From IMG/VR virus record IMGVR_UViG_2513237200_000007: a stretch of 47,685 nucleotides of DNA; one strand, 5' to 3'. The stretch is from a virus (taxonomy: Duplodnaviria > Heunggongvirae > Uroviricota > Caudoviricetes). How positions within the stretch are numbered: position 1 is the first letter of the stretch; each line of letters begins with the position of its first letter. Below the pieces are notes generated by a model. That model saw nothing but the letters and a program-made list of their open reading frames with translations, did no database searches and was not told where the DNA came from. Made by a program: the position numbers and the translations under genes. This document shows positions 1-14,860 of this stretch, piece by piece.

Positions 1-107
1 CTTGTTGTCTGATTATTGATTTTTCGCGAAACCATTTGATCATATGACAAGATGTGTATCCACCTTAACTTAATGATTTTTACCAAAATCATTAGGGGAT
101 TCATCAG
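1..107 (-). mobile_element. IS10 outside-end fragment; element continues beyond window start
   Basis: Positions 1-107 are identical to 19451-19557, the outside end and transposase 5' leader of the complete IS10 copy in the same orientation; the transposase ATG would lie just outside the window. Confidence 0.9.
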
Positions 108-169
108 CACTGCGCTTGAATTTATGGATTTCAAGAGTCATGCGTGTTAACTATTTGATAAATATTAAA

Positions 170-1465
170 TTAATTTTTCATTGCTTCGTTATGGGGCATG
201 GTTGGGGCAAACTCGCTTAACTGTGTATTTAACAAAGCTACCTGTGCATTATTGTTTTCAGACATCCATTTTCCGTATACCTGAAATACCATTTGCGCAT
301 CTGCATGGCCCATCTGGTTTGCTATAAATGCCGGGTTAGCACCAGCTGTCAGCGACCAGCAGGCATAAGTATGTCTCGACTGATATGATTTTCGATGGCG
401 GAGTCCGGCACGTTTTATCGCTGCGTCCCACATCTGCCTTATTGAGTCAACGGTAAAATGGTCACCATAATTTTTTACTCTCGCTGACACTTCAGGTTGA
501 AAAACAAAGGTGCATTTTTGTTTTTCTGTTCTGCCATACTCTCTGAGGTGAACATCAATGATATGCTCTTTGCTCAGTCTCGTTAATGTCATCTGACTCC
601 GGAGAGCGTCGATTGCTGGCTTAATAAGATGAATGACCCGATTGGTTCCCGCCTGTGTTTTTGGTACCGTGAAACGGTCTTTTGCTAAATTTCTCCTGAT
701 CATCATTGTTCCATTTTTCAGATCTATGTCCTCCCATCCAAGTGCACACAGCTCACCAGGGCGAACTCCAGTATAAACAGAAACACACCATAAATTTTTT
801 GCTTGCTGATTTCTGCACGCATCGATAAGACGGATAAATTCTTCCCGCGAAAGAGGATCCGGAATGGTTCTTGATTCCTTTAATGGCGAGATCCCCTTAA
901 ACGGATTATCTGCCAGGTAACCGTTATCAACACCAAACTGGAACACGGCGTTAAGATTTGTCATGTAATTATTTACAGTTACAGCCGATCTCCCTAGTTG
1001 TGTAACAATATAGTTACTTTTGGGGATCTGGTATCCAGTCAGTAACTCTTTACGAACCTCCAGTAATTTTTCTTTATTAATCGATGAGGCAAGATTTTTT
1101 TCACCGATTATGCTCAGGATATTTTTGATGACGGCACGGTATGTGTTGAGTGATGTTTTGGCGACTTCAGTTTCTTTCAGTGCCAGAAATTTTTCAGCCA
1201 GTTCTTTTATGGTTAAATCTTGTCGGGCCTCACCAAATTTTTCCAGATTGCGTGAGGAGGGAAACTGTTTTGCATAGTCGAAAACACCAGTTTTTATTGC
1301 GTAACAAACAGAGGAGCGTAGTTCACCTGCAACGCGCCTGTTTTTTGCTGTGTCAGGAACCCCCAGATTTTCCCTGACTCTTACGTCTTTATAAACAAAC
1401 CAGATACGTAATTTCCCTCCATGGTTTTCCACGCCTGTCGGATATTTCATTTCAACTTCTCTCAT
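170..1465 (-). CDS. int: phage integrase (tyrosine recombinase family)
   Basis: 431-aa ORF; C-terminal region has integrase-type R...HxxR...Y catalytic context (HADAQMVFQVYGKW, RHTYACW); sits at prophage edge next to an excisionase-like gene. Alternative start at Met6 (MKYPTG) possible. Confidence 0.9.
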   Translation of the reverse strand: MREVEMKYPTGVENHGGKLRIWFVYKDVRVRENLGVPDTAKNRRVAGELRSSVCYAIKTGVFDYAKQFPSSRNLEKFGEARQDLTIKELAEKFLALKETEVAKTSLNTYRAVIKNILSIIGEKNLASSINKEKLLEVRKELLTGYQIPKSNYIVTQLGRSAVTVNNYMTNLNAVFQFGVDNGYLADNPFKGISPLKESRTIPDPLSREEFIRLIDACRNQQAKNLWCVSVYTGVRPGELCALGWEDIDLKNGTMMIRRNLAKDRFTVPKTQAGTNRVIHLIKPAIDALRSQMTLTRLSKEHIIDVHLREYGRTEKQKCTFVFQPEVSARVKNYGDHFTVDSIRQMWDAAIKRAGLRHRKSYQSRHTYACWSLTAGANPAFIANQMGHADAQMVFQVYGKWMSENNNAQVALLNTQLSEFAPTMPHNEAMKN

Positions 1466-1484
1466 TAGTTAGTGTGGCTTTTAG

Positions 1485-1736
1485 TCAAGTAAGATGACGT
1501 CTTGGTCTCGCTGATGCCTGGCGCTCAATCCAGCGATCAATTTCTTCCAGGTTGTAAAAGCATGGACTGTTATCCCATGGCATACCGTCATGAGCGACAT
1601 GCTTATATTCCCTTCCTTCCATAAACGATTTTTCCCGGGCCTTTTTTAACGTACCTTTTTTTATTCCTTTCAGCGCAATTAACTGCTCTTCGGATACCCA
1701 TTTGCCGGGAGAGACAATCATGATTACTTCGCTCAT
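1485..1736 (-). CDS. xis: excisionase-like small DNA-binding protein
   Basis: 83-aa ORF immediately upstream of int on the same strand, 19-nt spacing; size and position typical of Xis. Confidence 0.6.
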   Translation of the reverse strand: MSEVIMIVSPGKWVSEEQLIALKGIKKGTLKKAREKSFMEGREYKHVAHDGMPWDNSPCFYNLEEIDRWIERQASARPRRHLT

Positions 1737-1808
1737 CGATTTCTTTATCTCTTACATCAGACGAGCGCCGGTTGCAGAATACCAGTCACAACCGGCGACA
1801 GTTGAACA

Positions 1809-4286
1809 TTAAGAATCAGCCTGACTCGGGATCAGTTTTTGCCAGATAACTGAAACGTATTTTGCCTGGTAACGGGCGTCATCAAGTGCATTATGGCGCT
1901 CACCTTCGAATGGAATAGCCGTTCTGGCATCGAAGTCTATGGCTTTCCCCAGCTCAACGATTGTGCGTACATCGCGATCGTTGTAGTAACGCCACGGGCA
2001 GGGGATCCCCTGCCGTTCGTATGAACGGCGCAAAATCGTGTTGTCGAAGTTGGCTCCATTTCCCCAAACCTGAACAAAAAATTCACCGGAGTTTTCGTCG
2101 ATAAATTCTCGCAATTGTAACAGTGCATCATCTAACGGGATTTCATCGGTCATAATGGCAGATTGCGCTTCGCGTGATTGCTTAAGCCACCATTTAATGG
2201 TGTCCCGATCAATGACTCCGCCAGCAGTTTCCAGATCGATAGTCTTACTAAATTCCGGTCCCATATCTCCGGTTTGCGGATCGAAAAATATTGCACCTAT
2301 TGAGATGATCGGGGCATCAGGATTTTTTCCCATGGTTTCAAGGTCGATCATTAGATGGTCACACGTCCTGCTGGTGGATGTGATTTCGTGATGACCGTTC
2401 ACCTTAATTGGGTGATCTGCCGTCTCGCCAGTTTCATTATCGCTATTGTGATGCTGATTGCCGCCAGTGTTCTCCTTGTGTGGATGTTCAGCGCCTTCCA
2501 TTTCCTCCGGATCATCTTCCTGAACTTCAACCTGATACTCTTCATCGAATGTTTCTTGGTATGTTGCGTCGCCCATCACCGCGCCACAATCAGGGCAGTT
2601 GCCGCCGCCGGTCTGACCGCAGGCGGTGCAGACTTTTTCCACTTCCTGTTGCGCTACTGGTTCAGGCTGTTTCGTTTCTGGCTCGTTTTGTAACGCATTT
2701 GGACTGTTTTGTTCCGCTTTTTGGTAGTTCCGTTCCGATTCATGCTGGTTCTGGTTCACAGAATCGCGGGTCTGGAGCCCCTTAACCCATTTCGGATCAT
2801 TCGGGTCACTAATCCCTTCAACAAATTCACCACGTGATGCAGCAAGCAACTTATCGGCGTCAGGCTGGCTGATATTGGCTGCCTGCATAATTTTGTTTAC
2901 TTCGTCAGCGGTAACTTTTATCGGCTCTGGTTGTTCTGAATCTTCAGCGGTATCTACATTTTGCGGTAAGCCCGTGTATGTGCCATTTTTTCGGGCAAAA
3001 TATTCTTCTTTTGTGATTTCAGTGGCGCCAGCAGCCAGTGCCTTATCCAGACCAGAGAGTTTGTTTGCGCGACCGTATTTTTCTCCGTCCTTATCTGCGA
3101 AGAGGAAATAGAACGGCCCCTCACGCTCTACAGATGGTTCAGCTTCCGGCGCGGTTTCATTTTTTGGGATATCAGATACCTCAGTTTCCACTGCATCAGT
3201 TTGTGTTTCTGATGACTGGAGAACATCAACAGTGCCCAGGTCTGTTTCTTCATTCTCAAACACGCCCTTTGTCGTCAGGTATTCGCAGATATATTTGTTC
3301 AGTGCTACGGGATCTTTGTGAATGTCGATCGGACGCTCACGGACAAGGCCAAAAATAGTTTGGCGGTCGTAGCGAAGGGCATCAGGCTGTTTGCGCATTG
3401 ATGCCGAGATACGCTTCCAGTCTTCGCGGTCGTTGTCGATAACTTCTTTTTTTGCCCAGCGATGGATGCTGCCGTCAATGTTTCCGGCATCCACATCACT
3501 AGGCCAGAGAGCGTAGGCCAGTTCGTCATCCAGTGTTTTCCATGTCTGCTTGTATTCGCGATGAATGGCAGCAATGACCGGGCTGATTTTTCCTGTTGAA
3601 TTTTCAGTGTACTGTTGATTGGCTCTGGCTCTGGCGCGGGCGAGATCAACAACAGACGTGTATTTTCCGGTTTCCTTGCGTTCACCTTCGCGACGTTTTT
3701 TCCAGATGCGCATCTCTGCCTGAATTTCGGGCCATTTAGCACCAGGAATACATTTATGCTTAACCCACCCAATGGCGTGCAACTTAAGCTCCGGATACAT
3801 GGCGTTAACTTCTGGCATTTTCATCAACGCTTCAACGATATGTCCGTCGAATGTTGCCATGTCTTCCTGCAACAATTCCTGTGCGCTAATAACCATATCA
3901 ACGGTGATGTTTTCACATGTGTCGAACTTAACCATGACAGCGTTCTGTACTTCAGGGGCCAGCTTGTCAAAAGTGACGTTCATCGGATCGGATTCAGTCT
4001 CAACCGGGACAAAAGAAGCAGACTCCTCATCCCAGCGGTTTTCCTGCATATATTCAGCATCCCATGAATCGAGGGCAGGGCGGGGTATGCCAGGTTTATC
4101 CTCGCAGACAATAAATTTATAAGCGCAGTCCTGAGCAGCCGGATAATGTTCCAGGAATTGCCAGTGAAATTTTGCTCGAGCACGGCGTTCGTCGCCAGCT
4201 TCAATGGCTGTGGCTACAGCCACAGCGCCTTCTTCCCTTGTTGCCAGTTCGTCAGGAATAGCGGCGCAAATAAAGACTTTACTCAT
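1809..4286 (-). CDS. RecE-like exonuclease (exodeoxyribonuclease VIII-like) with C-terminal DEDDh 3'-5' exonuclease domain
   Basis: Start taken at MSKVF (ATG 4284-4286) rather than track start 4322. C-terminus has DnaQ-like motifs (MIDLETMG ... WGNGANFD ... HNALDDA); central CxxC...CxxC zinc finger (CTACGQTGGGNCPDCG); acidic linker. Appears to be the intact form of the gene that is fragmentary (ydfE) in K-12 Qin. Confidence 0.8.
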   Translation of the reverse strand: MSKVFICAAIPDELATREEGAVAVATAIEAGDERRARAKFHWQFLEHYPAAQDCAYKFIVCEDKPGIPRPALDSWDAEYMQENRWDEESASFVPVETESDPMNVTFDKLAPEVQNAVMVKFDTCENITVDMVISAQELLQEDMATFDGHIVEALMKMPEVNAMYPELKLHAIGWVKHKCIPGAKWPEIQAEMRIWKKRREGERKETGKYTSVVDLARARARANQQYTENSTGKISPVIAAIHREYKQTWKTLDDELAYALWPSDVDAGNIDGSIHRWAKKEVIDNDREDWKRISASMRKQPDALRYDRQTIFGLVRERPIDIHKDPVALNKYICEYLTTKGVFENEETDLGTVDVLQSSETQTDAVETEVSDIPKNETAPEAEPSVEREGPFYFLFADKDGEKYGRANKLSGLDKALAAGATEITKEEYFARKNGTYTGLPQNVDTAEDSEQPEPIKVTADEVNKIMQAANISQPDADKLLAASRGEFVEGISDPNDPKWVKGLQTRDSVNQNQHESERNYQKAEQNSPNALQNEPETKQPEPVAQQEVEKVCTACGQTGGGNCPDCGAVMGDATYQETFDEEYQVEVQEDDPEEMEGAEHPHKENTGGNQHHNSDNETGETADHPIKVNGHHEITSTSRTCDHLMIDLETMGKNPDAPIISIGAIFFDPQTGDMGPEFSKTIDLETAGGVIDRDTIKWWLKQSREAQSAIMTDEIPLDDALLQLREFIDENSGEFFVQVWGNGANFDNTILRRSYERQGIPCPWRYYNDRDVRTIVELGKAIDFDARTAIPFEGERHNALDDARYQAKYVSVIWQKLIPSQADS

Positions 4287-4378
4287 TTGTTTTAACCTCA
4301 TGACAGATTTAAGGATGAACAAATCCCTGCCATTGCTGGCATATAAGAATGAAACCGGATATTTATTACGGAACTGTT

Positions 4379-4570
4379 TTAAAGACCTGCCGGGATTTCG
4401 ATATTATCCTGGTGAATAACTTTATCGACCGGGTAACAGTTACCGGGAATTTTCTGTTCGGTTGCTGCAGTCATACACTCCTGCATTGTCCTGTGAACAC
4501 TGACTGCAATATCAACTGGCTCTCCGGAAACAAGAAAAACTGTCAGAACAAGCACAAATGCTGAATTCAT
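4379..4570 (-). CDS. ydfD: YdfD-like small protein with N-terminal hydrophobic segment (lysis-associated in Qin)
   Basis: 63 aa from MNSAFVLVLTVFLVSG; its ATG (4568-4570) overlaps the dicB stop (4567-4569), the ATGA coupling seen in the Qin dicB operon. Confidence 0.75.
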   Translation of the reverse strand: MNSAFVLVLTVFLVSGEPVDIAVSVHRTMQECMTAATEQKIPGNCYPVDKVIHQDNIEIPAGL

Positions 4571-4755
4571 TGTGCACATCCTTTTGGCATCAGACGTAAA
4601 CGAGCCAGCATTGAAACAATGCATATTTTATTTAATAGCTCCCGTTCTTGTTTTCTCTTGTTAATGGCATCTTCAGTAAATACTGGGTTACTGATAGTGA
4701 CACCAATTTCAAAACAACCTTCAGACGTATTAACGTTTGGTAATAACGTTTTCAT
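4567..4755 (-). CDS. dicB: cell division inhibitor DicB
   Basis: 62 aa, MKTLLPNVNTSEGCFEIGVTISNPVFTEDAINKRKQERELL..., recognised as DicB from memory; SD GAGGA upstream; located immediately 3' of DicF on same strand. Confidence 0.8.
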   Translation of the reverse strand: MKTLLPNVNTSEGCFEIGVTISNPVFTEDAINKRKQERELLNKICIVSMLARLRLMPKGCAQ

Positions 4756-4924
4756 TATCGCGTCCTCAACAATGAATTTTGTGATGCAGTGCCTGGTGCC
4801 TCCAGGTGACGTTAACCAGTTAACAATTAACGCCGGATACAGAGAATCCACCCATAACACTGTTTTTGGTTTTAACTGTTCCGCGTGCGCTCAGCCGCAT
4901 TCACCACATCACAAAATTCACTTT

Positions 4925-4982
4925 AAAAAGGGCGGCAGAGCAGTCACGGAGTAAAACTGATACCGCCAAACGTCACCAGAAA
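4925..4982 (-). ncRNA. dicF: DicF small regulatory RNA (ftsZ-targeting sRNA) with intrinsic terminator hairpin
   Basis: Reverse complement of 4930-4982 reads TTTCTGGTGACGTTTGGCGGTATCAGTTTTACTCCGTGACTGCTCTGCCGCCC, matching DicF as I recall it; followed by a T-run; sits between ydfC and dicB as in Qin. Confidence 0.85.
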
Positions 4983-5322
4983 ATTGATAACAGAGGGCGT
5001 TGCAGCGGGGTTGTCACTTAAGCGTATGATCAACCTGACAACCCGGTGTCCTCAACGGGGAAGGAATAACCCCGCCATACTTACCGCCGCGCCATTTCGC
5101 GGGTTGCCACAACCGGAAGCGCACGGTCGACGAAAATTTAACGACAGGCTATCTATGAACCAGCTACCTCGCCGTGCGCTTTCGCGTTATGGTCTGACTT
5201 TTCAGGGAAATATCCTTTCAGTAAACTGTCAGTTCCGGATGCGCACCCGTGTCCGGCGCACGCACTCCACCTCACCCGTGGAGAACTCCTTAATTACTAA
5301 CCTTAGCTTTGTTGATTAGCTA

Positions 5323-5541
5323 CTAACGCGGGTATGTAATCATTCTGGCAATGCTTAATGCCGCTGCTTTTTCCAGATTGGTGATATCCTGCTCCAGAGC
5401 GGACAGATTTTCAGCCTGCTTAGCCCTGGCTTCATTAGCCCATTTCAGATCCTGCGCTGCATTAATTTTCTGGCGCATCCACTCATAAAGTTCATCATCG
5501 GTATAGTCTGGCGCGATGATGACGGGTTCTCGTTTCTGCAT
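5323..5541 (-). CDS. ydfC: YdfC-like protein
   Basis: 72-aa ORF in the dicA-distal operon, order and size matching ydfC of Qin. Confidence 0.7.
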   Translation of the reverse strand: MQKREPVIIAPDYTDDELYEWMRQKINAAQDLKWANEARAKQAENLSALEQDITNLEKAAALSIARMITYPR

Positions 5542-5570
5542 ACTGATTCCTCGCGGTGCTGTTTCGCTTA

Positions 5571-5699
5571 TCAGCCGTTAGATTTTGCCGAACTGGAAAG
5601 CGCCTGTTTAAACTCACTGAAGCTGAGAGCTTCTTCGCCTTCGGCAAGGCCTTCGAAGTATTCTTCGTAAGCCTTTTCCATGATTGTGTCGAAATCCAT
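5571..5699 (-). CDS. ydfB: YdfB-like small protein (42 aa; below ORF-track size cutoff)
   Basis: Hand translation of minus strand from ATG 5697-5699: MDFDTIMEKAYEEYFEGLAEGEEALSFSEFKQALSSSAKSNG, stop at 5571-5573; start is 2 nt after the ydfA stop, implying translational coupling. Confidence 0.6.
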   Translation of the reverse strand: MDFDTIMEKAYEEYFEGLAEGEEALSFSEFKQALSSSAKSNG

Positions 5700-5700
5700 A

Positions 5701-5856
5701 TCACTCACCTGAGTTTCTTTCCAGCCAGCGACGGGCACCATTTTCGGTTTTAAACGTTTTGCTTTTGGTATACGTCATTGCGGTGAACGTGCCGTCCTGG
5801 TTTGGAAACACGCCGTACACCAGAGATTCGTTGTTGCCAAGATCGATAGTATCCAT
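5701..5856 (-). CDS. ydfA: YdfA-like small protein
   Basis: 51 aa from MDTIDLGNNESLVYGVFPNQDGTF... (ATG 5854-5856); first gene downstream of dicA on the same strand. Confidence 0.7.
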   Translation of the reverse strand: MDTIDLGNNESLVYGVFPNQDGTFTAMTYTKSKTFKTENGARRWLERNSGE

Positions 5857-6022
5857 GCTGACCTCATTTCCCCTTAACGCTGGGGTAGCGGAACTGTTTG
5901 CTGAGAACACCGTGCGGTGTGTTGATGCAAACAAGATTAGCCATGACTAACATATCGGTCAAGTGATTTTGTATGCTATAGCTAACATAATTGATGTGGT
6001 AAAAGATAACTCATTGATGATG

Positions 6023-6430
6023 TTATCTTTTATTTGTCCGCTGACGGGCTTTTAGTAATTCTTCAAAGAGTTTATTGAAGTTTTTTACTCGAGCTCGCAT
6101 TTCGGCGAGCTGGGTATCCTGTTCTGATTCTGGCAGTGCATTAAACAGCTCAAGGAGCTCTAGTTCTTTGGGGGATAAGGCAACTGGCTTCTCAACAGGT
6201 GGTGTTGGTTGCTTGTCTTCATCGCCAAATAGAATCCATGTTGGTGAGCATTGCAATACTTTGCTGAGGGCAAAAAGGTTCTTCCCTGTAGGTTCACTAT
6301 CACCCCGTTCCCATTGTGATACAGACACATGGGAGATTTTCAGGGCTTTAGCAAGAGACCTTTGGGTGTGTTTGAGGTTTTTCCGACGATACCTGATGCG
6401 TTCGCCGATAGTTAAATTTTTTGTTTCCAT
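6023..6430 (-). CDS. dicA: HTH (XRE/cI-like) repressor DicA
   Basis: 135 aa, METKNLTIGERIRYRRKNLKHTQRSLAKALKISHVSVSQWERGDSEPTGKNLFALSKVL... with clear HTH_XRE motif; divergent from dicC. Confidence 0.85.
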   Translation of the reverse strand: METKNLTIGERIRYRRKNLKHTQRSLAKALKISHVSVSQWERGDSEPTGKNLFALSKVLQCSPTWILFGDEDKQPTPPVEKPVALSPKELELLELFNALPESEQDTQLAEMRARVKNFNKLFEELLKARQRTNKR

Positions 6431-6513
6431 AGTTAGCTAATGCTAAATCGTATTGACTATGTTTTTGTTAACATCTATCTTGTTAGTTATGACTAACAAT
6501 AAAGGTGTTTTAA
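6431..6513. promoter_or_regulatory. divergent dicA/dicC promoter-operator region
   Basis: 83-bp intergenic between divergently transcribed repressor genes; contains palindromes TTAGCTAA, GTTAAC and GTTAGTTATGACTAAC typical of repressor operators. Confidence 0.5.
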
Positions 6514-6744
6514 ATGCTTAAAACTGACGCTCTTTTGTATTTCGGTTCAAAAACAAAACTTGCACAAGCAGCAGGTATTCGTTTGGCTTCGCTTTATAGC
6601 TGGAAAGGGGATTTAGTTCCCGAAGGTCGCGCGATGCGTCTACAGGAGGCATCTGGCGGGGAGCTTCAGTATGATCCCAAAGTTTATGATGAATATCGTA
6701 AGACGAAGCGGGCGGGGCGGTTGAACAATGAAAATCACTCCTGA
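6514..6744 (+). CDS. dicC: Cro-like regulator DicC
   Basis: 76 aa, MLKTDALLYFGSKTKLAQAAGIRLASLYSWKGDLVPEGRAMRLQEASGG...; divergent partner of dicA. Confidence 0.8.
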   Translation: MLKTDALLYFGSKTKLAQAAGIRLASLYSWKGDLVPEGRAMRLQEASGGELQYDPKVYDEYRKTKRAGRLNNENHS

Positions 6745-7249
6745 ACAGGCTCGTGAGGCTCTGGATGCCTGGATATGTCGACCAGGAATGACACAGGAGC
6801 AGGCGACGATATTAATCACTGAAGCATTCTGGGCTTTGAAAGAGCGCCCGAACATCGATGTTCAGCGTGTCACATATGAAGGTGGCGCGATTGATCAGCG
6901 AGCGCTTGGCGTTAATCGAGTGAAGATATTTGAACGCTGGAAGGCTATCGACACCAGGGATAAGCGTGAAAAGTTCACGGCGCTAGTGCCTGCAATTATG
7001 GAGGCTATCCGGATTAATGATTTCAGGTTGTATCGTGAAATTACTGACGGAAAAAGCATCACGTGCATGATCGCCGGGTTAAACAAAGAATATGGCGATG
7101 TGGTGGAGTCCGGACTGCTTTTTGCTGATCCTGCCGTAGTGGATCGTGAAACTGACGAACTTATAGAAAAAGCAATTGCTTTCAAACTTGCGTATCGACA
7201 GCAATACCAACAAAAAGCTGGATGGAATTATGAGCCTTCTTTTTGCTGA
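6728..7249 (+). CDS. YdfX-like protein (intact form; CII-position regulatory or YdaT-like protein)
   Basis: 173-aa ORF overlapping dicC end by 17 nt; N-terminus MKITPEQAREALDAWICRPGMTQEQ... resembles the ydfX fragment of K-12 Qin as I recall it; function not established. Confidence 0.55.
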   Translation: MKITPEQAREALDAWICRPGMTQEQATILITEAFWALKERPNIDVQRVTYEGGAIDQRALGVNRVKIFERWKAIDTRDKREKFTALVPAIMEAIRINDFRLYREITDGKSITCMIAGLNKEYGDVVESGLLFADPAVVDRETDELIEKAIAFKLAYRQQYQQKAGWNYEPSFC

Positions 7250-8195
7250 ACGCCCACTGGTTATAAACACGCAGCTGGCAATGAAAATTGGCTTAAACGA
7301 AGCCATTGTTTTGCAACAACTGCACTACTGGTTGAGAGATACCAACTCCGGCATGGAATGTGATGGTGTTCGCTGGATTTATAACACAACGGAACAATGG
7401 CTGGAACAGTTCCCATTCTGGTCAGAGTCAACGTTAAAGCGCGCGTTTGCAAGTCTGAAAACGCTGGGGCTTTTGCGTTGTGAAAAGCTCAATAAATCAA
7501 AGCGCGATATGACCAATTTCTACACGATCAACTATGGGAGCGAGCTTTTAGATGGTGGCAAATTGAGCGAATCCATCGGTTCAAAATGCGCCGCTCCATC
7601 AGGTCAAAATGACACGATGGAAGAGGTCAAAATGAAACGCTCCATTGGTTCAAAACGACCCAATGTCATCGGGTCAAAATGGCCTGATGATCTTACAGAG
7701 AATACAACAGAGATTACTACAGAGAATAAAAACACTTTTCGTCCGGAAGCTTCGCAACCGGACCCGCAGACGACTGAACAGGATTTTTTAACCCGGAACT
7801 CCGACGCGGTTGTGTTTAGTGCGAAAAAACGCCAGTGGGGTAGCAGGGAGGATTTGGCGTGTGCGCAGTGGATCTGGGGGCGGATCGTGGGTCTCTACGA
7901 ACAGGCAGCCAGTGATGATGGCGAGATCATGCGACCAAAAGAGCCTAACTGGACTGCCTGGGCCAATGACGTGCGCACAATGCGGATGCTGGATGGCAGA
8001 AGCCACAGACAAATTTGCGAAATGTTTGGTCGGGTTCAGCGAGATCCATTCTGGGTAAAAAACATCATGAGCCCGTCAAAGCTCCGCGAAAAATGGGACG
8101 AACTGGTCATCCGCCTGGGACGTTCACCTGTACAGCGTTGTGTTAATCATATTTCTGAACCGGATACAGAAATTCCGCCTGGTTTCAGAGGATAA
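7230..8195 (+). CDS. phage replication initiation protein (O-like, N-terminal DNA-binding domain)
   Basis: Start at MSLLFAERPLVINTQLAMKIGLNEAIVLQQLHYWL (ATG 7230); contains an internal iteron array at the DNA level, as lambda O contains ori. Confidence 0.65.
   Translation: MSLLFAERPLVINTQLAMKIGLNEAIVLQQLHYWLRDTNSGMECDGVRWIYNTTEQWLEQFPFWSESTLKRAFASLKTLGLLRCEKLNKSKRDMTNFYTINYGSELLDGGKLSESIGSKCAAPSGQNDTMEEVKMKRSIGSKRPNVIGSKWPDDLTENTTEITTENKNTFRPEASQPDPQTTEQDFLTRNSDAVVFSAKKRQWGSREDLACAQWIWGRIVGLYEQAASDDGEIMRPKEPNWTAWANDVRTMRMLDGRSHRQICEMFGRVQRDPFWVKNIMSPSKLREKWDELVIRLGRSPVQRCVNHISEPDTEIPPGFRG
7571..7681 (+). repeat. five direct iterons with about 23-bp periodicity inside the replication gene, followed by an AT-rich stretch (putative ori)
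   Basis: Cores GGTTCAAAATG (7578), GGTCAAAATG (7602), GGTCAAAATG (7625), GGTTCAAAACG (7648), GGGTCAAAATG (7671); followed by AT-rich 7683-7745. Confidence 0.6.
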
Positions 8196-8235
8196 GTGTT
8201 GATTTCAGGTCATGAGGTAATTTTAAGGGGGACTT

Positions 8236-8658
8236 GTGGCAAAAGTTTTTACACAAGAAGAGCGGGAAAAAATTAAATGGCAGGTGGTGGAACTCGTGCG
8301 CCAGAGCGGCCGTGAGACGTTACGGCAACTGGAAGCTAAAACAGGTGCGACTAGATATCTGATGAGCGTTCTTGCCAGAGAGCTGGTAGCCAGTGGCGAT
8401 GTATACAACTCCGGCTACGGGTTATTCCCCTCTGAACAGGCGCGTAAGGACTGGCAAAACGCCCGCAAAAAACTCTCGAGGGCAAAGGTGAAGAAACCTG
8501 CTGTGGTTGATCCGGACCTTATCTGGTCATCACCTGACGGAGAAATACGTCGCTACGACAGTCGCCTAAACATAATCTGTCGCGAGTGCCGGAAGAGCGA
8601 AGTTATGCAGCGCATACTGGCTTTCTATCAGGGTAATTTTCAGGACGTGGCGCAGTGA
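8236..8658 (+). CDS. hypothetical protein (GTG start), translationally coupled to the downstream methyltransferase remnant
   Basis: 140-aa ORF with strong SD AAGGGGG 4-5 nt upstream of GTG 8236; stop overlaps the GTG of the next ORF (GTGA). No recognisable motif beyond a C-terminal CxxC. Confidence 0.5.
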   Translation: MAKVFTQEEREKIKWQVVELVRQSGRETLRQLEAKTGATRYLMSVLARELVASGDVYNSGYGLFPSEQARKDWQNARKKLSRAKVKKPAVVDPDLIWSSPDGEIRRYDSRLNIICRECRKSEVMQRILAFYQGNFQDVAQ

Positions 8659-9101
8659 GTGCACCGGCAACCATTCTTGATATGTGCTGTGGCAGCCGCA
8701 TGTTCTGGTTCGATAAGTCTGACGAACGGGCGATATTCAGCGATATCAGAAAAGAAGGATACACATTACGCAATGGGAGACGCTTGATTATCAGCCCTGA
8801 CATTATCGCAGATTTTCGTGCATTATCATTTGCAGACGCATCTTTTTCGATGGTTGTATTAGACCCTCCGCATCTTGAGAGTGTTGGTGATAACGCCTGG
8901 ATGGGAAAGAAATATGGACGGCTGAATAAAGATGCCTGGCGTGATGATTCGCGACAGAGATTTAAAGAAGCCTTTCGGGTGTTGAGGCCGCACGGCGTTC
9001 TGATTTTTTAATGGAATGAAACGCAAATACCGGTAAGCCAGATTCTGGCACTGACAGACAGAAAACCTGTTATCTGTCAACGAACAGGGAAAAAACGATA
9101 A
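8655..9101 (+). pseudogene. DNA methyltransferase remnant, truncated by in-frame TAA at 9009-9011
   Basis: N-terminal SAM-binding-like LDMCCGSR and catalytic-like VLDPPH motifs within 118 aa, then TAA; frame stays open a further 29 codons to the stop at 9099-9101; too short for a functional MTase. Confidence 0.45.
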
Positions 9102-9621
9102 AACCCACTGGATTATTTTTATGAAAGAGGCATCCAGTGAGTAGATTCGTAAGGCTACAGATACGTATATCTGAATAATTAAATTCAGTTCTGTAAATAA
9201 AATTTAATCCTTAACCGGATGGATTTCTGCACCCTCAGAACATCAGGAGGCCGCCCGAAAGGGCGGTAGTGAAATGCGAAAGTTCAAAATTATTATTGAA
9301 ACGGGAATAGCTGGTGGAGATTTTGAGGATGTATTCGAAGTGGACGATGACGCAACACCTGAGGAAATTCATGACGGAGCATAAGAAATTTTCTTTAACT
9401 ACTGCAATTACTCATACCACGAAATAAAAGACGATGAGGAAGAACAAAGTGGCTGATTTTTGTTCAGCTAAATATAACATCAGTTTTGAAGAGCGGGATG
9501 AACTATTAATGGACTATGGTGAGTTACGCGGTGGAAGTGCTGCTGATGTCGAATCCTAGCGTGATGACTATGAAGCGGGAAAAACTCCGGTCGAAGCATA
9601 TTGTGATGAGTGGGGCGATGA

Positions 9622-9909
9622 ATGAGCGAGATTAATTATCAGGAAGGGCATGAAACGGCGGGGCAAGCAAAACCAGTGGCATGGCGATATCGCTACGTGA
9701 AAAAAGGCGTTACGGACTTTCAGGGGAAGTAGTGGTCTGGTGACTGGAAATATGTACCGAAAAAAGAGGATTGTAACGACAGGCCGAACTATCAAATTCA
9801 GGCCTTATTCACTGCCTCACCAGTCCCAGTTACATCAGAAGAACTGGTTAAAGCTGTGCACTTTTATGAACAACTAAAACGCGAAAATCCACCAACATCC
9901 GGCAACTAG
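9622..9909 (+). pseudogene. small ORF interrupted by a single in-frame amber codon (TAG 9730-9732)
   Basis: MSEINYQEGHETAGQAKPVAWRYRYVKKGVTDFQGK-TAG-WSGDWKYVPKKEDCNDRPNYQIQALFTASPVPVTSEELVKAVHFYEQLKRENPPTSGN; 36 codons, stop, then 58 open codons in the same frame. Confidence 0.3.
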
Positions 9910-10163
9910 ATTAATGGATTAACTATGTCGGTTAAACGACCAGCCAACTGAAAAAGCGGAAACCTGATTACAGGTTGCCAGATAAGGCAATGAGCTACCT
10001 GGCGCGGAACGGACTGATAAGTATGGGGAATGTTTTACGATGAACCTTTAGACTAAAGAGTTTGTAACGCTATGTAAGTGATTTTTTCTGGTTTAGATAT
10101 TTATATGTCCGGCCAAATTGAGGTGTGTTTAAATGTAATTGCACATTGATTGTAGGAGGAATA

Positions 10164-10343
10164 ATGAAAAACGCATTGCAGTTTTTGTTTGTTGCGTTCT
10201 GGTTGTTCGCATCATGTATGCCCATCATCTTCACAGCAAGGTATATGGAAAAAGTTGATGTTTTGATATTAATATTTGGATATATAAATGCCCTTTTTTT
10301 AGGGGTGTTCATGGCGGTCATGTGCATTGAATACTGGCGGTAA
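10164..10343 (+). CDS. small predicted membrane protein (59 aa, two hydrophobic segments)
   Basis: MKNALQFLFVAFWLFASCMPIIFTARYMEKVDVLILIFGYINALFLGVFMAVMCIEYWR; strong SD AGGAGGA 4 nt upstream of ATG 10164. Confidence 0.45.
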   Translation: MKNALQFLFVAFWLFASCMPIIFTARYMEKVDVLILIFGYINALFLGVFMAVMCIEYWR

Positions 10344-10599
10344 ATACAGCGAACTCCATTGGTTTAGTTGGATATTTACTGTGCTGGACAAAAACGGTTT
10401 GCGGGGAAATCTTAGTTAAGTAGAATGACTGCGGGTGCTTGAGGCTATCTGCCTCGGGCATGGACACCAACGGCAGATAGAGAAAAGCCCCAGTTAACAT
10501 TACGCGTCCTGCAAGACGCTTAACATTAATCTGAGGCCAATTTCATGCTAGACACATGTAGGTTAGCCTCTTACGTGCCGAAAGGCACGGAGAAGCAGG

Positions 10600-12050
10600 C
10601 TATTGTTAACACCAAGCTGTAATGTCCCCTTTGAACCATTCTAAAATGTCCCCAGACAATTCTCTCGTGGATTTTTCATGATCAAAGAGACTGTTACGAT
10701 GAGTCATAAGGAACTCCACCGACTTCAGATTATTCAGGAACAAGCTGCGGCACGCATTGGCATTTCTATTCGGCAGGTTAAACGTCTGGTGCAACGGTAT
10801 AGAAATGAAGGGCCTTCTGGTCTGGTTTCCCACCGACGTGGAAAGCGTCCTAATAATTCCTTTTCTACTGAATTCAGAGCAACAGTAATTTCACTCCTCA
10901 AAGGCCGTTACGCTGATTTTGGACCTACGTTTGCGTGCGAAAAATTGCGCGAGATACACGGTTTATCTTTATCCGTTGAAACTCTCAGAAAGTGGATGAT
11001 AGAAGAGGGGTTATGGCGTGAACGCCGTCGTAAAATTGCCCGTATATATCAACGCCGCATGCGACGACCATCTTACGGTGAACTGATCCAGATTGATGGC
11101 TCACCTCATGACTGGTTTGAAAATCGAGGCCCCAGATGTACACTGATCGTTTTCATTGATGATGCCACCAGTGCGTTGATGGCGTTGCGTTTTGTGCCTG
11201 CTGAAACAACCCGGGCTTACATGGAAACCCTCCGGGGTTACCTTAATGATCATGGCGTACCGCTCGCTCTCTACTCTGATAGACACAGTATATTCAGGGT
11301 AAATAACCCAGAGCGGGAAGGTGAGCTGACCCAGTTCACTCGTGCGATAAAGACACTGGGCATCGAGCCAATCCATGCCAACAGCCCGCAGGCAAAAGGG
11401 CGGGTAGAGCGCGCCAATCAGACACTACAGGACAGGCTGGTCAAAGAAATGCGGCTTCAGAATATCAGTGATATTGAAACAGCAAATGCATGGTTGCCGA
11501 CCTTTATTGAAGCCTATAACAACCGGTTCGCTACGTCGCCTCGTACTACTGATAATGCTCATCTTGATGTGCACCATTCTGAAGAGGAACTGGGTTATAT
11601 CTTCAGCCTACAGGCGAAGCGCGTTCTGTCTAAAAATCTCACTTTCCAGTACAAAAGCAGTGCGTTTCAGGTACGCAGTGAGGGCCGGGGATATCGACTT
11701 AGGCATTCGGTTGTTACTGTATGCGAGAACTTTGACGGTGAAATTAACGTTCTGTATGACGGGAAAGCGCTGGGCTGGGAAAAGTATGTTGATGGCCCGG
11801 AGCCTATACCACTGGATGATGAAAAGAGTGTCCATGAACGAGTGGATAATGCCCGTATTGATTTACGCTCAAAATACTATGTTAAACCTAAAGCTGACCA
11901 TCCCTGGCTTACGCGCCGAACGCAAAGTCATCAGCAAGTTAAGCCCCCGAAGTTACCTAAAAAGAAGCCTGATCCCGATAAAAAAGATTGAAACCAAGAT
12001 CGATTCGGTTGAGTGCATATCCATTCATAGGGTAGATTCTTAAGTCGCGT
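10600..12050 (+). mobile_element. insertion sequence carrying an rve-type DDE transposase (IS481/ISNCY-like); ends not resolved
   Basis: Single transposase ORF with flanking non-coding sequence, lying where K-12 Qin has only pseudogenes; I could not identify terminal inverted repeats by eye, so coordinates are approximate. Confidence 0.35.
10678..11991 (+). CDS. DDE transposase with N-terminal HTH and retroviral-integrase-like (rve) catalytic core
   Basis: 437 aa; N-terminal HTH (HRLQIIQEQAAARIGISIRQVKRLVQRY), catalytic D (IQIDGSPHDWF), D (YSDRHSIF), E (KGRVERANQTLQDRL). Possible alternative start at MSHKEL (10699). Confidence 0.8.
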   Translation: MIKETVTMSHKELHRLQIIQEQAAARIGISIRQVKRLVQRYRNEGPSGLVSHRRGKRPNNSFSTEFRATVISLLKGRYADFGPTFACEKLREIHGLSLSVETLRKWMIEEGLWRERRRKIARIYQRRMRRPSYGELIQIDGSPHDWFENRGPRCTLIVFIDDATSALMALRFVPAETTRAYMETLRGYLNDHGVPLALYSDRHSIFRVNNPEREGELTQFTRAIKTLGIEPIHANSPQAKGRVERANQTLQDRLVKEMRLQNISDIETANAWLPTFIEAYNNRFATSPRTTDNAHLDVHHSEEELGYIFSLQAKRVLSKNLTFQYKSSAFQVRSEGRGYRLRHSVVTVCENFDGEINVLYDGKALGWEKYVDGPEPIPLDDEKSVHERVDNARIDLRSKYYVKPKADHPWLTRRTQSHQQVKPPKLPKKKPDPDKKD

Positions 12051-12427
12051 TTCTGGTGTTCATTTTCGGGTGGTTTGTTACTTGTTTTACCGGGGATATG
12101 CCAGAAACGCGCTGAGTCAGTCTGGGCGGTGCGCGTAATGAGGCGTTATGGTAAATAGCCTATGCTAATGTCCGCTAAGAGCAAGAAGCGGAAGTTGGCA
12201 GTTTTGTGGACTGTCCCCACAAAAGTGACTACAGAAATAGTTGCAATTCATAATTGATCATGGGTTGTCAGTTAAACTCGTGGCGATTTAAATAGACTAA
12301 TTGGGAGTGCGTCCATTACTTATATCTTGTAATGTTAACTATCAGAAATGATACAAAGATAATATGTCTTTAAAGAAAAGGCTGATGGCGAAAAGTGGCC
12401 CGATGAGGGCCACAATACGGCTGTCAC

Positions 12428-12760
12428 TTAGACGTAAATATCAATGGTGCCAGCGGTATTTGTATCGTCTTTTTTCTCTTCTTTTTTATCAGGCTGAACT
12501 GTCGCGTCTTCATTCTTTTTCTCTGCCTGCTGCCTTAACAACTGCTCCAGTTGAGCCCAGAGGCTTTCAATTTGCTTCTGTACCAATGCAGCCATTTCTT
12601 TTTTCTGCTGTGTCGTCATCCCCTCTTCCGATGAGATTTTCCCAAGCTTTTCAGTCAGCACCTGAATTTGTCTTGTGATTTTGGCTATTTCTGATGTTCC
12701 TTCCGGGGCGGAGTTGTTTGAAATAACGGTTGAGGTATTTCCCTGAATTGTGACAGACAT
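12428..12760 (-). CDS. flxA: FlxA-like protein (FliA-regulated)
   Basis: 110 aa, MSVTIQGNTSTVISNNSAPEGTSEIAKITRQIQVLTEKLGK..., recognised as FlxA; preceded by a sigma-28 consensus promoter. Confidence 0.85.
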   Translation of the reverse strand: MSVTIQGNTSTVISNNSAPEGTSEIAKITRQIQVLTEKLGKISSEEGMTTQQKKEMAALVQKQIESLWAQLEQLLRQQAEKKNEDATVQPDKKEEKKDDTNTAGTIDIYV

Positions 12761-12783
12761 AGATTTCTCCTTTTAAAAAAGCA

Positions 12784-12810
12784 CTATCGGCATGCACAAA
12801 AAAATCTTTA
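12784..12810 (-). promoter_or_regulatory. sigma-28 (FliA) promoter upstream of flxA
   Basis: Minus strand reads TAAAGATT-N11-GCCGATAG, against consensus TAAAGTTT-N11-GCCGATAA, about 25 nt upstream of the flxA ATG. Confidence 0.7.
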
Positions 12811-12962
12811 ATCGTATTTCTTGTGTCATTAATTGTTTGATGTTCAGATTGTTTTCCTCGCGGGCTGGCGCGCCTCAGAAAGTAAAGCTTGTTGACAGGG
12901 GTAAACGTTCGGCAATAATTTTCTGCCGCATGCGGGTGTTGCATAAAACGTGTTACGTTCCT

Positions 12963-13268
12963 TTATCGACAGGTCAGGTCACCGCTCACCCGCCGACGAG
13001 AAAGCAACACTGACATGCTAAAGCAAAAAATAGATGAATAAGTTGAGTTGTGCATATGTAGCCTGACCGTCACAAAGTATATGGTGTCTGTACCAGTAAG
13101 ATGATGGCCGGACTCTTTAAAAACGAGCTGACCTGCACAATACAGGATGGACTTAGCAATGGCTGCTCCTGGCACAAAGCGGACAGTGATCACCGTTCTT
13201 ACGACTACTTTCTGACTTCCTTCGTGACTTGCCCTAAGCATGTTGTAGTGCGATACTTGTAATGACAT
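12963..13268 (-). CDS. hypothetical ORF (YdfV-like by position and length)
   Basis: 101-aa ORF between relB promoter and flxA; composition is not convincingly protein-like; kept only because position and length match a gene annotated in Qin. Confidence 0.3.
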   Translation of the reverse strand: MSLQVSHYNMLRASHEGSQKVVVRTVITVRFVPGAAIAKSILYCAGQLVFKESGHHLTGTDTIYFVTVRLHMHNSTYSSIFCFSMSVLLSRRRVSGDLTCR

Positions 13269-13283
13269 TTGTAATTACAAGAG
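13229..13283 (+). promoter_or_regulatory. relB promoter with relO-like operator
   Basis: -35 TTGCCC (13229-13234), 17-nt spacer, -10 GATACT (13252-13257); operator-like inverted repeats CTTGTAATGACATTTGTAATTACAAG overlapping -10 and start site. Confidence 0.6.
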
Positions 13284-13292
13284 GTGTAAGAC

Positions 13293-13532
13293 ATGGGTAG
13301 CATTAACCTGCGTATTGACGATGAACTTAAAGCGCGTTCTTACGCCGCGCTTGAAAAAATGGGTGTAACTCCTTCTGAAGCGCTTCGTCTCATGCTCGAG
13401 TATATCGCTGACAATGAACGCTTGCCGTTCAAACAGACACTCCTGAGTGATGAAGATGCTGAACTTGTGGAGATAGTGAAAGAACGGCTTCGTAATCCTA
13501 AGCCAGTACGTGTGACGCTGGATGAACTCTGA
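13293..13532 (+). CDS. relB: RelB antitoxin
   Basis: 79 aa, MGSINLRIDDELKARSYAALEKMGVTPSEALRLMLEYIADNERLPF...; stop overlaps relE start. Confidence 0.9.
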   Translation: MGSINLRIDDELKARSYAALEKMGVTPSEALRLMLEYIADNERLPFKQTLLSDEDAELVEIVKERLRNPKPVRVTLDEL

Positions 13533-13819
13533 TGGCGTATTTTCTGGATTTTGACGAGCGGGCACTAAAGGAATGGCGAAAGCTGGGCTCGACGGTACGT
13601 GAACAGTTGAAAAAGAAGCTGGTTGAAGTACTTGAGTCACCCCGGATTGAAGCAAACAAGCTCCGTGGTATGCCTGATTGTTACAAGATTAAGCTCCGGT
13701 CTTCAGGCTATCGCCTTGTATACCAGGTTATAGACGAGAAAGTTGTCGTTTTCGTGATTTCTGTTGGGAAAAGAGAACGCTCGGAAGTATATAGCGAGGC
13801 GGTCAAACGCATTCTCTGA
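13532..13819 (+). CDS. relE: RelE mRNA interferase toxin
   Basis: 95 aa, MAYFLDFDERALKEWRKLGSTVREQLKKKLVEVLESPRIE...; ATGA overlap with relB. Confidence 0.9.
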   Translation: MAYFLDFDERALKEWRKLGSTVREQLKKKLVEVLESPRIEANKLRGMPDCYKIKLRSSGYRLVYQVIDEKVVVFVISVGKRERSEVYSEAVKRIL

Positions 13820-13890
13820 ACCAAAGCATGACATCTCTGTTTCGCACCGAAGGTGACACTTCTGCTTTGCGTTGACAGGAGAAGCAGGCT

Positions 13891-14046: not shown

Positions 14047-14114
14047 GAGACCCGGCGGGGGAGAAATCCCTCGCCACCTCTGATGTGGCAGGCATCCTCA
14101 ACGCACCCGCACTT

Positions 14115-14140
14115 AACCCGCTTCGGCGGGTTTTTGTTTT
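14115..14140 (+). terminator. rho-independent terminator after relBE-hokD
   Basis: Hairpin CCCGC-TTCG-GCGGG followed by TTTTTGTTTTT. Confidence 0.6.
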
Positions 14141-14859: not shown

Positions 14860-14860
14860 C

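Follow-up and report, generated by a model that had tools for sequence, protein, structure and literature searches.

The dicAC-dicBF control region of a Qin-type lambdoid prophage with an intact left arm, and a conserved RNA element upstream of dicF

Results

A complete DicA/DicC switch and dicB operon

The window analysed here is a 47,685-nucleotide stretch of viral DNA (Caudoviricetes; IMG/VR record IMGVR_UViG_2513237200_000007). Its positions 4379-6744, with a GC content of 45.2% (50.3% in the whole window), carry the following genes:

6514-6744, plus strand: dicC, Cro-like repressor, 76 aa (open reading frame; identical to K-12 DicC; Pfam P22_Cro, 1.7e-11)
6023-6430, minus strand: dicA, CI/C2-like repressor, 135 aa (identical to K-12 DicA; synonymous SNP at 6263)
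5701-5856, minus strand: ydfA, 51 aa, DUF1391 (open reading frame; Pfam; identical to K-12)
5571-5699, minus strand: ydfB, 42 aa (open reading frame; identical to K-12)
5323-5541, minus strand: ydfC, 72 aa (open reading frame; identical to K-12)
4930-4982, minus strand: dicF sRNA, 53 nt, a seed followed by an intrinsic terminator (Rfam; predicted fold; identity to K-12)
4567-4755, minus strand: dicB, MinC-dependent division inhibitor, 62 aa (identical to K-12; Pfam DicB)
4379-4570, minus strand: ydfD, 63 aa, DUF1482, annotated lysis protein (open reading frame; Pfam; identical to K-12)

We read this segment, with a probability of about 95%, as the early-left control region of a Qin-type lambdoid prophage, comprising the DicA/DicC switch and the transcript from dicBp. 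Comparison with the Qin (Kim) prophage of K-12 (b1569-b1576) revealed the same insertion site, with a junction running into the ynfP/rspB side, the same gene order, and the same dicF and operator Oc; all seven translations (DicC, DicA, YdfA, YdfB, YdfC, DicB and YdfD) are exactly those of K-12. Over these 2.4 kb MG1655 differs by three SNPs only, two in the spacer between ydfC and dicF (5029 and 5174) and the synonymous one in dicA, and identity to K-12 Qin exceeds 99.7% wherever K-12 retains the sequence (99.7-99.97% in the shared segments). Thus the switch and the ydfA-ydfB-ydfC-dicF-dicB-ydfD operon are as complete as the first-pass annotation had claimed, and nothing that we found contradicts the identification. 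The DNA itself shows the sequence identity, the integrity of the genes and the identity of the operator.

The tight coupling noted earlier is also present: one nucleotide separates the ydfA stop from the ydfB ATG, and dicB and ydfD share ATGA, in the same layout as K-12. DicB matches Pfam PF05358 over residues 1-62 of 62 (1.9e-40), and its gene lies downstream of dicF. The locus is already known as the well-studied cell-division-inhibition region of Qin (DicA/DicC, DicF, DicB), since an intact left arm occurs in 1,597 of 5,426 complete E. coli genomes (about 30%) and in deposited phage genomes. Strain LY180 has the same locus, with an identical record and the same gene names annotated. The phage PhiR42_1 (PV340562; host ECOR13) matches window positions 117-18228 at 99.9% identity and stays collinear as far as the window's end; in its record dicB and dicF are unannotated and spurious opposite-strand ORFs are called instead. 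Tritos, HannyBb and mEp460_ev081 are further deposited phage genomes close to the window, the last cited as a functional phage with dicB, dicF, dicAC and rem (PMC10448788).

Operators and candidate promoters of an antirepressor-type switch

The control elements of the switch, and the gene of its antirepressor, are as follows:

6480-6499, minus strand: operator Oc, TTGTTAGTCATAACTAACAA, DicA binding site (exact match to the published 20-nt Oc; palindrome scan)
6453-6481, plus strand: candidate dicC promoter, TTGACT-17-TATCTT, the PR analogue (consensus scan)
6433-6446, plus strand: second TTAG-N6-CTAA palindrome, directly next to the dicA start codon (palindrome scan)
5934-5962, minus strand: candidate dicBp, the PL analogue (-35 TTGACC, 5962-5957; -10 TAATCT, 5939-5934; read from the sequence)
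14263-14514, plus strand: rem, antirepressor of DicA, 83 aa (identical to K-12 rem; function from PMC10448788)

Divergent dicA (minus strand) and dicC (plus strand) are separated by an 83-bp spacer, the layout of a lambdoid CI/Cro-type switch. The 20-nt Oc sequence is bound by DicA in vivo (PMC3441716), and the position of the candidate dicC promoter beside Oc agrees with the promoter described there. The palindrome at 6433-6446 is probably the Oa/Om of the literature; its function is uncertain, as neither Om nor Oa bound DicA in the assay of Yun et al. (PMC3441716). A third operator-like sequence, TTAGTCATGGCTAA, lies at 5950-5937, between the -35 and -10 of the candidate dicBp, and is identical to the Oc core at 12 of 14 positions. 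Exact TTAG-N6-CTAA palindromes occur in the 47.7 kb at 5937, 6433 and 6483 only. It is the clustering of these three in the immunity region that carries meaning, because enrichment across the window is not significant once one mismatch is allowed (6 found, 11 expected). Transcription from dicBp would start near 5927-5932, a position that we infer from the sequence and that is consistent with the numbering (813/814) of the RNase III site in PMC10448788.

The arrangement resembles the immunity regions of lambda and P22 (cI-OR-cro and the PL operon), which likewise have divergent repressor and Cro genes and palindromic operators at PR/PRM and PL. Unlike their repressors, DicA lacks a domain for RecA-dependent cleavage and answers to the Rem antirepressor instead. 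Its Pfam matches are HTH_3 and Phage_CI_repr only, with no S24 autocleavage domain among them, and the protein is described as lacking the Ala-Gly cleavage site and as controlled by Rem (PMC10448788); together, these two features make the DicA switch antirepressor-type rather than lambda-type.

DicA repression, Rem action, bistability and the lack of an internal promoter were reported for the identical K-12 sequence (PMC10448788), and activities at the present locus would follow those experiments. DicA bound to Oc would repress dicC and activate dicA, and would also repress the PL-like dicBp through the near-identical palindrome between its -35 and -10. The Cro-like DicC would counteract DicA, yielding a bistable switch, and the prophage-encoded Rem could also relieve DicA repression.

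DicF and its precursor

The dicF sequence lies between ydfC and dicB, as originally proposed, and all 53 of its nucleotides match K-12 b1574, leaving zero divergence in the seed or terminator. It matches Rfam RF00039 over the full model (1-52) at 4930-4981 on the minus strand, with 76.7 bits (gathering threshold 48). In its predicted fold the 5' seed is single-stranded and precedes the terminator hairpin, which is followed by U5. Three further RNA features flank it:

5107-5192, minus strand: long imperfect hairpin (minimum free energy -37.4 kcal/mol)
4988-5126, minus strand: conserved four-helix RNA element, directly 5' of dicF (covariance model; covariation; alignment)
4723-4932, minus strand: spacer between dicF and dicB, with a predicted long-range duplex of ~21 bp pairing about 4919-4899 with 4793-4773 (predicted fold)

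The spacer between ydfC and dicF had been described as about 330 nt of GC-rich untranslated precursor. Its size held up approximately, at 340 nt (4983-5322), and its GC content is only mildly high (52.6%, with a local peak of 56.7%). Untranslated it is: a 111-aa plus-strand ORF (4984-5319) and the opposite-strand ORFs called in PhiR42_1 were rejected as coding, because near-identical copies differ by 1-nt indels and conservation tracks base-paired stems. It is not featureless, holding the long RNase III-type hairpin and the conserved structured element.

In K-12, RNase III cleavage of the identical sequence gives a 190-nt species and RNase E cleavage the 53-nt DicF (PMC10448788). The reported 5' end of the 190-nt species maps to about 5119, and the hairpin at 5107-5192 is probably, judging from its predicted fold, the RNase III substrate that yields it; the K-12 SNP at 5174 turns a C-G pair of this hairpin into U-G. 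Processed 53-nt DicF represses ftsZ in vivo (PMC10448788, PMC5069750), and further targets are documented (PMC5069750), in each case for the identical K-12 sequence. A 72-nt DicF species was reported in PMC9438474, and the modelled duplex between 4919-4899 and 4793-4773 is a likely RNase III site for it. The same dicF-dicB spacer gave a sub-threshold match to Rfam STnc100 (34.4 bits; gathering threshold 47).

From these observations a pathway can be proposed. Derepressed dicBp would produce a polycistronic RNA containing ydfA-ydfB-ydfC, the 340-nt structured spacer, dicF, dicB and ydfD. RNase III would cut the long spacer hairpin to give the 190-nt species, and an RNase E cut about 15 nt past the four-helix element would then give 53-nt DicF, its 3' end set by its own intrinsic terminator. 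DicF would pair with the ftsZ, manX, xylR and pykA mRNAs, and DicB with MinC would block FtsZ rings and ManYZ. Polymerases that pass the DicF terminator would go on to transcribe dicB-ydfD and, probably, the exonuclease, xis and int genes beyond. Separately, we were unable to fit the transcript sizes of 1,146 nt and 1,608 nt given in PMC10448788 to a single start site, and we left them out of the mapping.

A conserved four-helix element with variable 3' modules

The element begins at the reported RNase III cut and consists of a closing stem (GUUGUGG/CUGCAAC) and three hairpins, with an invariant block, GGCGCGGCGGUAAG. A search of 4300-6100 against Rfam (E<=5) assigned it to no family, returning DicF, the sub-threshold STnc100 match downstream of dicF, noise and nothing else. 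A tRNA or tRNA-like gene was also rejected: ARAGORN was empty across the window, and the four-way-junction topology is a mere resemblance. As an RNA domain the element would be uncatalogued; Faubladier & Bouché 1994 and Lobocka et al. 2004 may already describe conservation flanking dicF.

We found the element in 140 loci, including the P1 ban leader, other lambdoid phages, and Salmonella, Erwinia and Citrobacter prophages. In each it is closely followed by a seed-plus-terminator module that varies between loci; DicF is one such module. The window's copy carries a unique C-to-U change at position 5029 of an otherwise invariant loop (138 C, 2 U), which could alter DicF biogenesis in this lineage.

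The evidence for a conserved fold comes from several sides: firstly, our covariance model R1 scores 161 bits; secondly, 96% of alignment cells are paired, compared with 37-63% in slid controls, and a MAFFT-only alignment gives 94% compared with 37-55%; thirdly, 11 pairs show compensatory change, a number reached in 0 of 500 shuffles. The near-identity of most copies (>90%) and the low effective number of sequences in the model (1.45) are what would be expected if the 340-nt spacer were a passive 3'UTR or precursor, its element functionless and conserved through recent kinship of the prophages; current reviews, too, class DicF as an sRNA derived from the ydfC 3'UTR and mention no upstream element. 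We consider this unlikely. Besides the compensatory pairs and the excess of pairing over controls, the element keeps 76-89% identity between unrelated flanks in P1/P7, in Ayreon-type lambdoids and in prophages of Salmonella, Erwinia, Trabulsiella and Citrobacter; 23 of the 81 well-flanked loci have it without ydfC, dicB or the DicF seed; and the 1-nt indels exclude coding as the cause of its conservation.

The P1/P7 copy illustrates the point. Within the leader of the C1-controlled ban operon, the 'dicF-like region' holds the same element at 76-81% identity, three of its stems showing compensatory changes, and an intrinsic terminator comes after it. The region lacks the DicF seed and dicB and has tRNAs, tciABC and ban downstream instead, with the element separated from the start site of the promoter by only about 20-30 nt.

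What the element might do is suggested by its surroundings. A T-run follows its block 2 by 62-157 nt in all 137 copies whose downstream sequence is long enough, so placing an intrinsic terminator just downstream each time, and its contexts are repressor-controlled early operons (the P1 Pban leader, the Ayreon PL leader, and pPE4 downstream of a DicA-like gene). Both features would suit a put-like, factor-independent processive antiterminator that lets polymerase pass the DicF terminator into dicB and on to int, as would the absence of a recognisable N-like protein: among the early-left genes neither PHROGs nor Pfam gave an N-like antiterminator. The putL/putR RNAs of HK022, a phage that lacks N, likewise act in cis from early-operon leaders ahead of terminators. 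The present element differs from them in its fold, a four-way junction rather than the two stem-loops of put (PMC9378689), and occurs once only, the PR side having no counterpart of putR. Membership of the put family by homology was rejected, as neither blastn-short nor the covariance model matched the HK022 immunity region and no second copy occurs in the window. Since the same layout would be expected just as much if the 5' part of an sRNA gene were structured, we regard put-like antitermination as distinctly improbable, with put at most a functional analogy.

Structure-directed processing offers a second parallel. In MicL-type maturation (cited in PMC9438474) a stem-loop likewise sits directly upstream of the RNase E site that makes the sRNA 5' end; here its place would be taken by a large conserved domain of four helices that occurs in phages with different sRNA modules.

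The exonuclease-xis-int arm and the reach of the operon

Beyond ydfD the minus strand continues with three genes:

1809-4286, minus strand: exonuclease, 825 aa, full-length form of the K-12 ydfE pseudogene (825 aa from ATG; N-terminus matches K-12 ydfE)
1485-1736, minus strand: excisionase xis, 83 aa, DUF1233 (Pfam; absent from K-12)
170-1465, minus strand: tyrosine integrase int, intact form of K-12 intQ (Pfam Arm-DNA-bind_2 and Phage_integrase)

The exonuclease matches PHROG 2082 over its full length and carries a C-terminal Rv2179c-like DEDD 3'-5' exonuclease domain (PF16473, 2.4e-67, residues 644-815). Phage records name it RecE or exodeoxyribonuclease VIII, an identity that we rejected: Pfam finds only the Rv2179c-like/RNase_T DEDD domain, and the sole exonuclease VIII PHROG match is weak and partial (phrog_412, 8.7e-16, residues 455-596).

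That these three genes are intact, unlike in K-12 Qin, is borne out by the reading frames and Pfam domains, and by LY180, where all are normal CDSs (int annotated 170-1450). In K-12, ydfE, insD7 and intQ are pseudogenes, and window positions 1330-3513 are missing through an IS2-associated deletion (IS2E) that removed the exonuclease C-terminus, xis and the int N-terminus; the contrast is correct because K-12 is a deletion derivative of the present arrangement. K-12 Qin has also lost most PR-side replication genes (window 7008-11806) and structural genes, which the window keeps. The locus had been called undecayed. This is accurate for the left arm but not for the prophage as a whole, which has extra IS10 copies not in K-12 Qin, one of them at 18228-19561 between the Q gene and the lysis cassette and absent from PhiR42_1.

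Co-orientation and a 92-nt gap are the grounds on which the dicB operon may run on into the exonuclease, xis and int. No strong terminator was found between ydfD and the exonuclease gene, and a scan of the minus strand gave no promoter-like site between the genes. The lambda PL operon, in the order N...exo...xis-int, is the standard layout and the natural analogue; in lambda and P22 the leftward early operon likewise ends in xis-int. Here, by contrast with those phages, neither N nor nut is recognisable, and DicF and DicB stand in for kil/cIII-type genes.

It is nevertheless quite possible, if not our favoured view, that the operon stops after ydfD and that the exonuclease, xis and int genes are a unit of their own, transcribed only in particular circumstances or from separate promoters. 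K-12 Northern blots assigned transcripts to ydfABC-dicF and ydfABC-dicFB-ydfD, with no species beyond ydfD and none containing ydfE (Ragunathan et al., PMC10448788), and the 92-nt gap holds a small hairpin with a short T-containing tail (4341-4328). That hairpin is a weak one of 5 bp, and shuffled sequence folds equally well (z-score about 0); truncation of ydfE by IS2 in K-12 may destabilise longer RNAs there.

Discussion

The locus itself brings nothing new, being the textbook dicBF region in a strain that retains the prophage left arm. Its practical use is as a natural intact comparator to K-12, for the reach of dicBp into xis/int and for Rem-induced excision.

For the element, the reading that we put forward, at somewhat less than even odds, is that this ~125-nt four-helix domain is the 5' body of a ~190-nt early-leader RNA family of enterobacterial temperate phages (Qin-type, other lambdoids, P1/P7). 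Its 3' seed-plus-terminator part would be exchangeable, DicF being one version, and the domain would control either sRNA release by RNase III/E or terminator read-through into early-left genes. If this is true, DicF would have to be seen as the 3' module within a larger, modular family of phage RNAs, and the element would offer a handle on how N-less phages pass the first terminator of their early-left operon.

The dicA/dicC-dicBF locus

The first-pass annotation had proposed an intact dicA/dicC switch with a complete ydfA-ydfB-ydfC-dicF-dicB-ydfD operon. The ORF listing and an Rfam scan recovered every feature that it named, each where it had been placed.

Genes and sRNA of the locus (ORF listing, except dicF and rem)
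6514-6744, plus strand: dicC
6023-6430, minus strand: dicA
5701-5856, minus strand: ydfA
5571-5699, minus strand: ydfB
5323-5541, minus strand: ydfC
4930-4982, minus strand: dicF (Rfam RF00039, 76.7 bits against a gathering score of 48)
4567-4755, minus strand: dicB
4379-4570, minus strand: ydfD
1809-4286, minus strand: exonuclease, 825 aa
1485-1736, minus strand: xis
170-1465, minus strand: int
14263-14514, plus strand: rem, antirepressor gene (identical to K-12 rem)

The tight coupling described earlier is present: the ydfA stop lies 1 nt from the ydfB start, and an ATGA overlap joins dicB to ydfD. The DicF fold consists of an unpaired 5' seed, then a terminator hairpin, then a U5 run. The dicF-dicB spacer (4723-4932, minus strand) has a sub-threshold Rfam STnc100 match (34.4 bits against a gathering score of 47) and a predicted long-range duplex of ~21 bp, a plausible place for the RNase III cut that would yield the 72-nt DicF species.

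Megablast of 4379-6744 returned 100% matches in many E. coli genomes (including W/LY180, C and ATCC 8739), all of which annotate dicA, dicC, ydfA-D and dicB; the W-type strain LY180 is 100% identical to the window over 1-12744. The Qin prophage of K-12 MG1655 shows 99.7–99.97% identity across shared segments and differs within 4379-6744 at three positions: two of them (5029 and 5174) fall in the ydfC-dicF spacer, and the third, 6263, is a synonymous change in dicA. The seven encoded proteins, dicF (53 nt) and rem are the same in K-12, with no divergence in the DicF seed or terminator.

Immunity switch and transcription

The mode of action of the locus is read from K-12 experiments on identical sequence. 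There, DicA represses dicBp and dicC, Rem relieves this repression, and DicA/DicC behave as a bistable switch; there is no internal promoter, and the polycistronic RNA from dicBp is cut by RNase III (190-nt species) and by RNase E (53 nt) to give DicF (PMC10448788; PMC5069750). The 20-nt operator Oc, which binds DicA (Yun et al., PMC3441716), has an exact match at 6499-6480, overlapping the -10 end of a candidate dicC promoter (TTGACT-17-TATCTT). Downstream of dicA, a palindrome at 5950-5937 (12/14 identical to the Oc core) lies between a TTGACC -35 and a TAATCT -10, a promoter that we assign from its sequence as the putative PL-like dicBp. Exact TTAG-N6-CTAA palindromes occur three times in the 47.7-kb window, all within one 560-bp region here. 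DicA itself has only HTH domains; no S24 cleavage domain was found in it.

The operon had also been said to continue into the exonuclease, xis and int. These genes are intact, and transcription may extend into them. K-12 Northern blots showed no transcript beyond ydfD (PMC10448788); here the 92-nt ydfD-exonuclease gap contains a weak hairpin only. At its C-terminus the 825-aa protein carries an Rv2179c-like DEDD 3'-5' exo(ribo)nuclease domain, and a RecE-type domain is absent; because of the domain found, the label 'exodeoxyribonuclease VIII' that it carries in several phage records is probably wrong.

State and frequency of the arrangement

K-12 Qin lacks window 1330-3513 (the exonuclease C-terminus, xis and the int N-terminus), where it carries IS2E instead, as well as the PR-side genes of 7008-11806 (YdaT/CII-like, O-like, DUF977, methyltransferase, hok/sok and an ISNCY element) and structural genes that the window has; its ydfE, insD7 and intQ are pseudogenes. 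Since the alignment shows these segments to be missing, K-12 Qin derives by deletion from the window's arrangement, in line with the first-pass reading. Within the segment lost from K-12, a hok/sok-type module (10433-10604; Rfam sok, 104 bits) adjoins a 437-aa ISNCY-family transposase ORF (10678-11991), labelled partial in the LY180 annotation.

The description 'undecayed' holds for the left arm only: an IS10 (18228-19561), flanked by a 9-bp target duplication, interrupts ynfU in the interval from the Q antiterminator gene to the lysis cassette; this insertion is absent from K-12 and from phage PhiR42_1. A second IS10 end (1-106) lies just outside the prophage end, in ynfP, and RNA-OUT matches mark both copies (19443-19512 and 1-62). 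Elsewhere, cspA-type thermoregulator 5'UTR matches on the plus strand (17450-17842, 159 bits; 21690-22075, 113 bits) sit at cold-shock genes of the prophage, which align with the cspB and cspI regions of K-12, and an Rfam IS009 sRNA family match (221 bits) falls at 47017-47215 (plus strand) within the tail-fibre assembly gene region.

The intact left-arm arrangement is not rare: int through dicC is present in one piece at ≥80% in 1,597 of 5,426 complete E. coli genomes. It also occurs in deposited phage genomes. PhiR42_1 shares 99.9% identity with the window over 117-18228 and stays collinear with it through the tail genes, and the functional phage mEp460_ev081 has dicB, dicF, dicAC and rem (Ragunathan et al., 2023; PMC10448788). 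The PhiR42_1 record leaves dicB and dicF unannotated at 5456-6211, places two 'hypothetical proteins' on the opposite strand over dicB-dicF and the spacer, and labels ydfA 'head-DNA stabilization protein D', all apparently errors of annotation. At the end of the 254-kb Aeromonas jumbo-phage record AP1 (MT713136; 249906-250152), 247 bp match the dicF region with 98.8% identity, which looks like assembly contamination.

A conserved RNA element precedes dicF

The ydfC-dicF spacer, earlier described as about 330 nt and GC-rich, measures 340 nt and is only mildly GC-rich (52.6%). It is not featureless. Its fold is much more stable than that of shuffled sequence (z = -4.6), and 5192-5107 forms a long imperfect hairpin (predicted, -37.4 kcal/mol) in which the K-12 SNP at 5174 turns a C-G pair into U-G; the reported 5' end of the 190-nt species (4930+189 = 5119) maps to its 3' strand. 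Part of the spacer matches phages without dicF, which is how we noticed a conserved element at 4988-5126 (minus strand), directly after the long hairpin and immediately 5' of dicF.

An IMG/VR motif scan found this element in at least 120 stretches, and 140 fetched loci carry it, among them Ayreon-type lambdoids, the P1 ban leader and prophages of Salmonella, Erwinia, Trabulsiella and Citrobacter. Phage Ayreon has it in the PL leader; in P1 it is 20–30 nt past the start of Pban, which C1 controls, at a place annotated as a 'dicF-like region'; in a phage record under the name Actinobacillus pPE4 it comes after a gene for a DicA-like repressor. Species-representative genomes, scanned independently for the motif, have it only in Escherichia, Shigella, Citrobacter, Trabulsiella and Erwinia, and in MAG contigs assigned to unrelated taxa (Bacillota, Veillonella, Collinsella), which probably reflect binning contamination. 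Each locus has one copy, with no second copy elsewhere in the window, and the element was not found in HK022.

RNAalifold and a hand-specified structure gave a four-way junction.

Helices of the spacer element
Helix 1: closing stem, 7-8 bp, GUUGUGG/CYRCAAC
Helix 2: hairpin CCGCG-AAAUGG-CGCGG
Helix 3: long arm with variable distal hairpin
Helix 4: arm GGGUUGUCAGG...UGACAACCC

In a MAFFT-only alignment, 94% of cells are paired, against 37–55% in slid controls. The model-fitted alignment of 38 distinct sequences, which leans towards the model, has 96% paired and compensatory change in 11 pairs (32 cells), a number reached by 0/500 shuffles and compared with 0–4 pairs in slid controls. Position 5029, an otherwise invariant loop position of the fourth helix, is U in the window and LY180 and C in the other copies, K-12 included (138 C vs 2 U).

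Three identities were rejected: a coding sequence, as near-identical copies differ by 1-nt indels; a member of the put family (the HK022 antiterminator RNA), as the element lacks similarity to it, folds differently and occurs only once per locus; and a tRNA-like RNA (ARAGORN negative). Rfam has no family for the element, and within the recent literature neither reviews nor the 2023 regulation paper mention it.

Variable 3' modules and possible roles

A short variable stretch, a hairpin and a T-run follow the element in 137/137 copies with enough downstream sequence. Some of these modules are classical DicF; others join the DicF seed to a different hairpin, carry one of several other seeds, or, in Ayreon and P1, are no more than a terminator. 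Among 14 divergent loci, Rfam scored one as DicF. Among 81 loci with ample flanks, ydfC lies upstream as in the window in 19 and dicB downstream in 55, and 23 have neither ydfC, dicB nor a DicF seed. In nine fetched loci (L105, L111, L009, L117, L115, L085, L036, L133 and L147), alternative modules ~40–110 nt 3' of the element take the place of classical DicF, with different single-stranded 'seeds' and hairpins, most unrecognised as DicF by Rfam; they may be uncharacterised DicF-like sRNAs with other targets.

RNase E creates the DicF 5' end ~15 nt beyond the closing stem, RNase III cuts ~6 nt ahead of it, and P1 transcription starts just before it; the 190-nt RNA thus appears to be the basic unit. 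These early-left operons encode no recognisable N-like protein, which leaves room for an RNA-based read-through mechanism as a candidate role. The data fit equally well a processing or stability domain for the sRNA.

Together, these results support the first-pass interpretation with minor corrections: the dicA/dicC-dicBF locus is confirmed, and it is an ordinary one that was known before. The conserved spacer element, uncatalogued in Rfam, is a modestly interesting side lead that recurs across enterobacterial phages and prophages beyond dicF loci.
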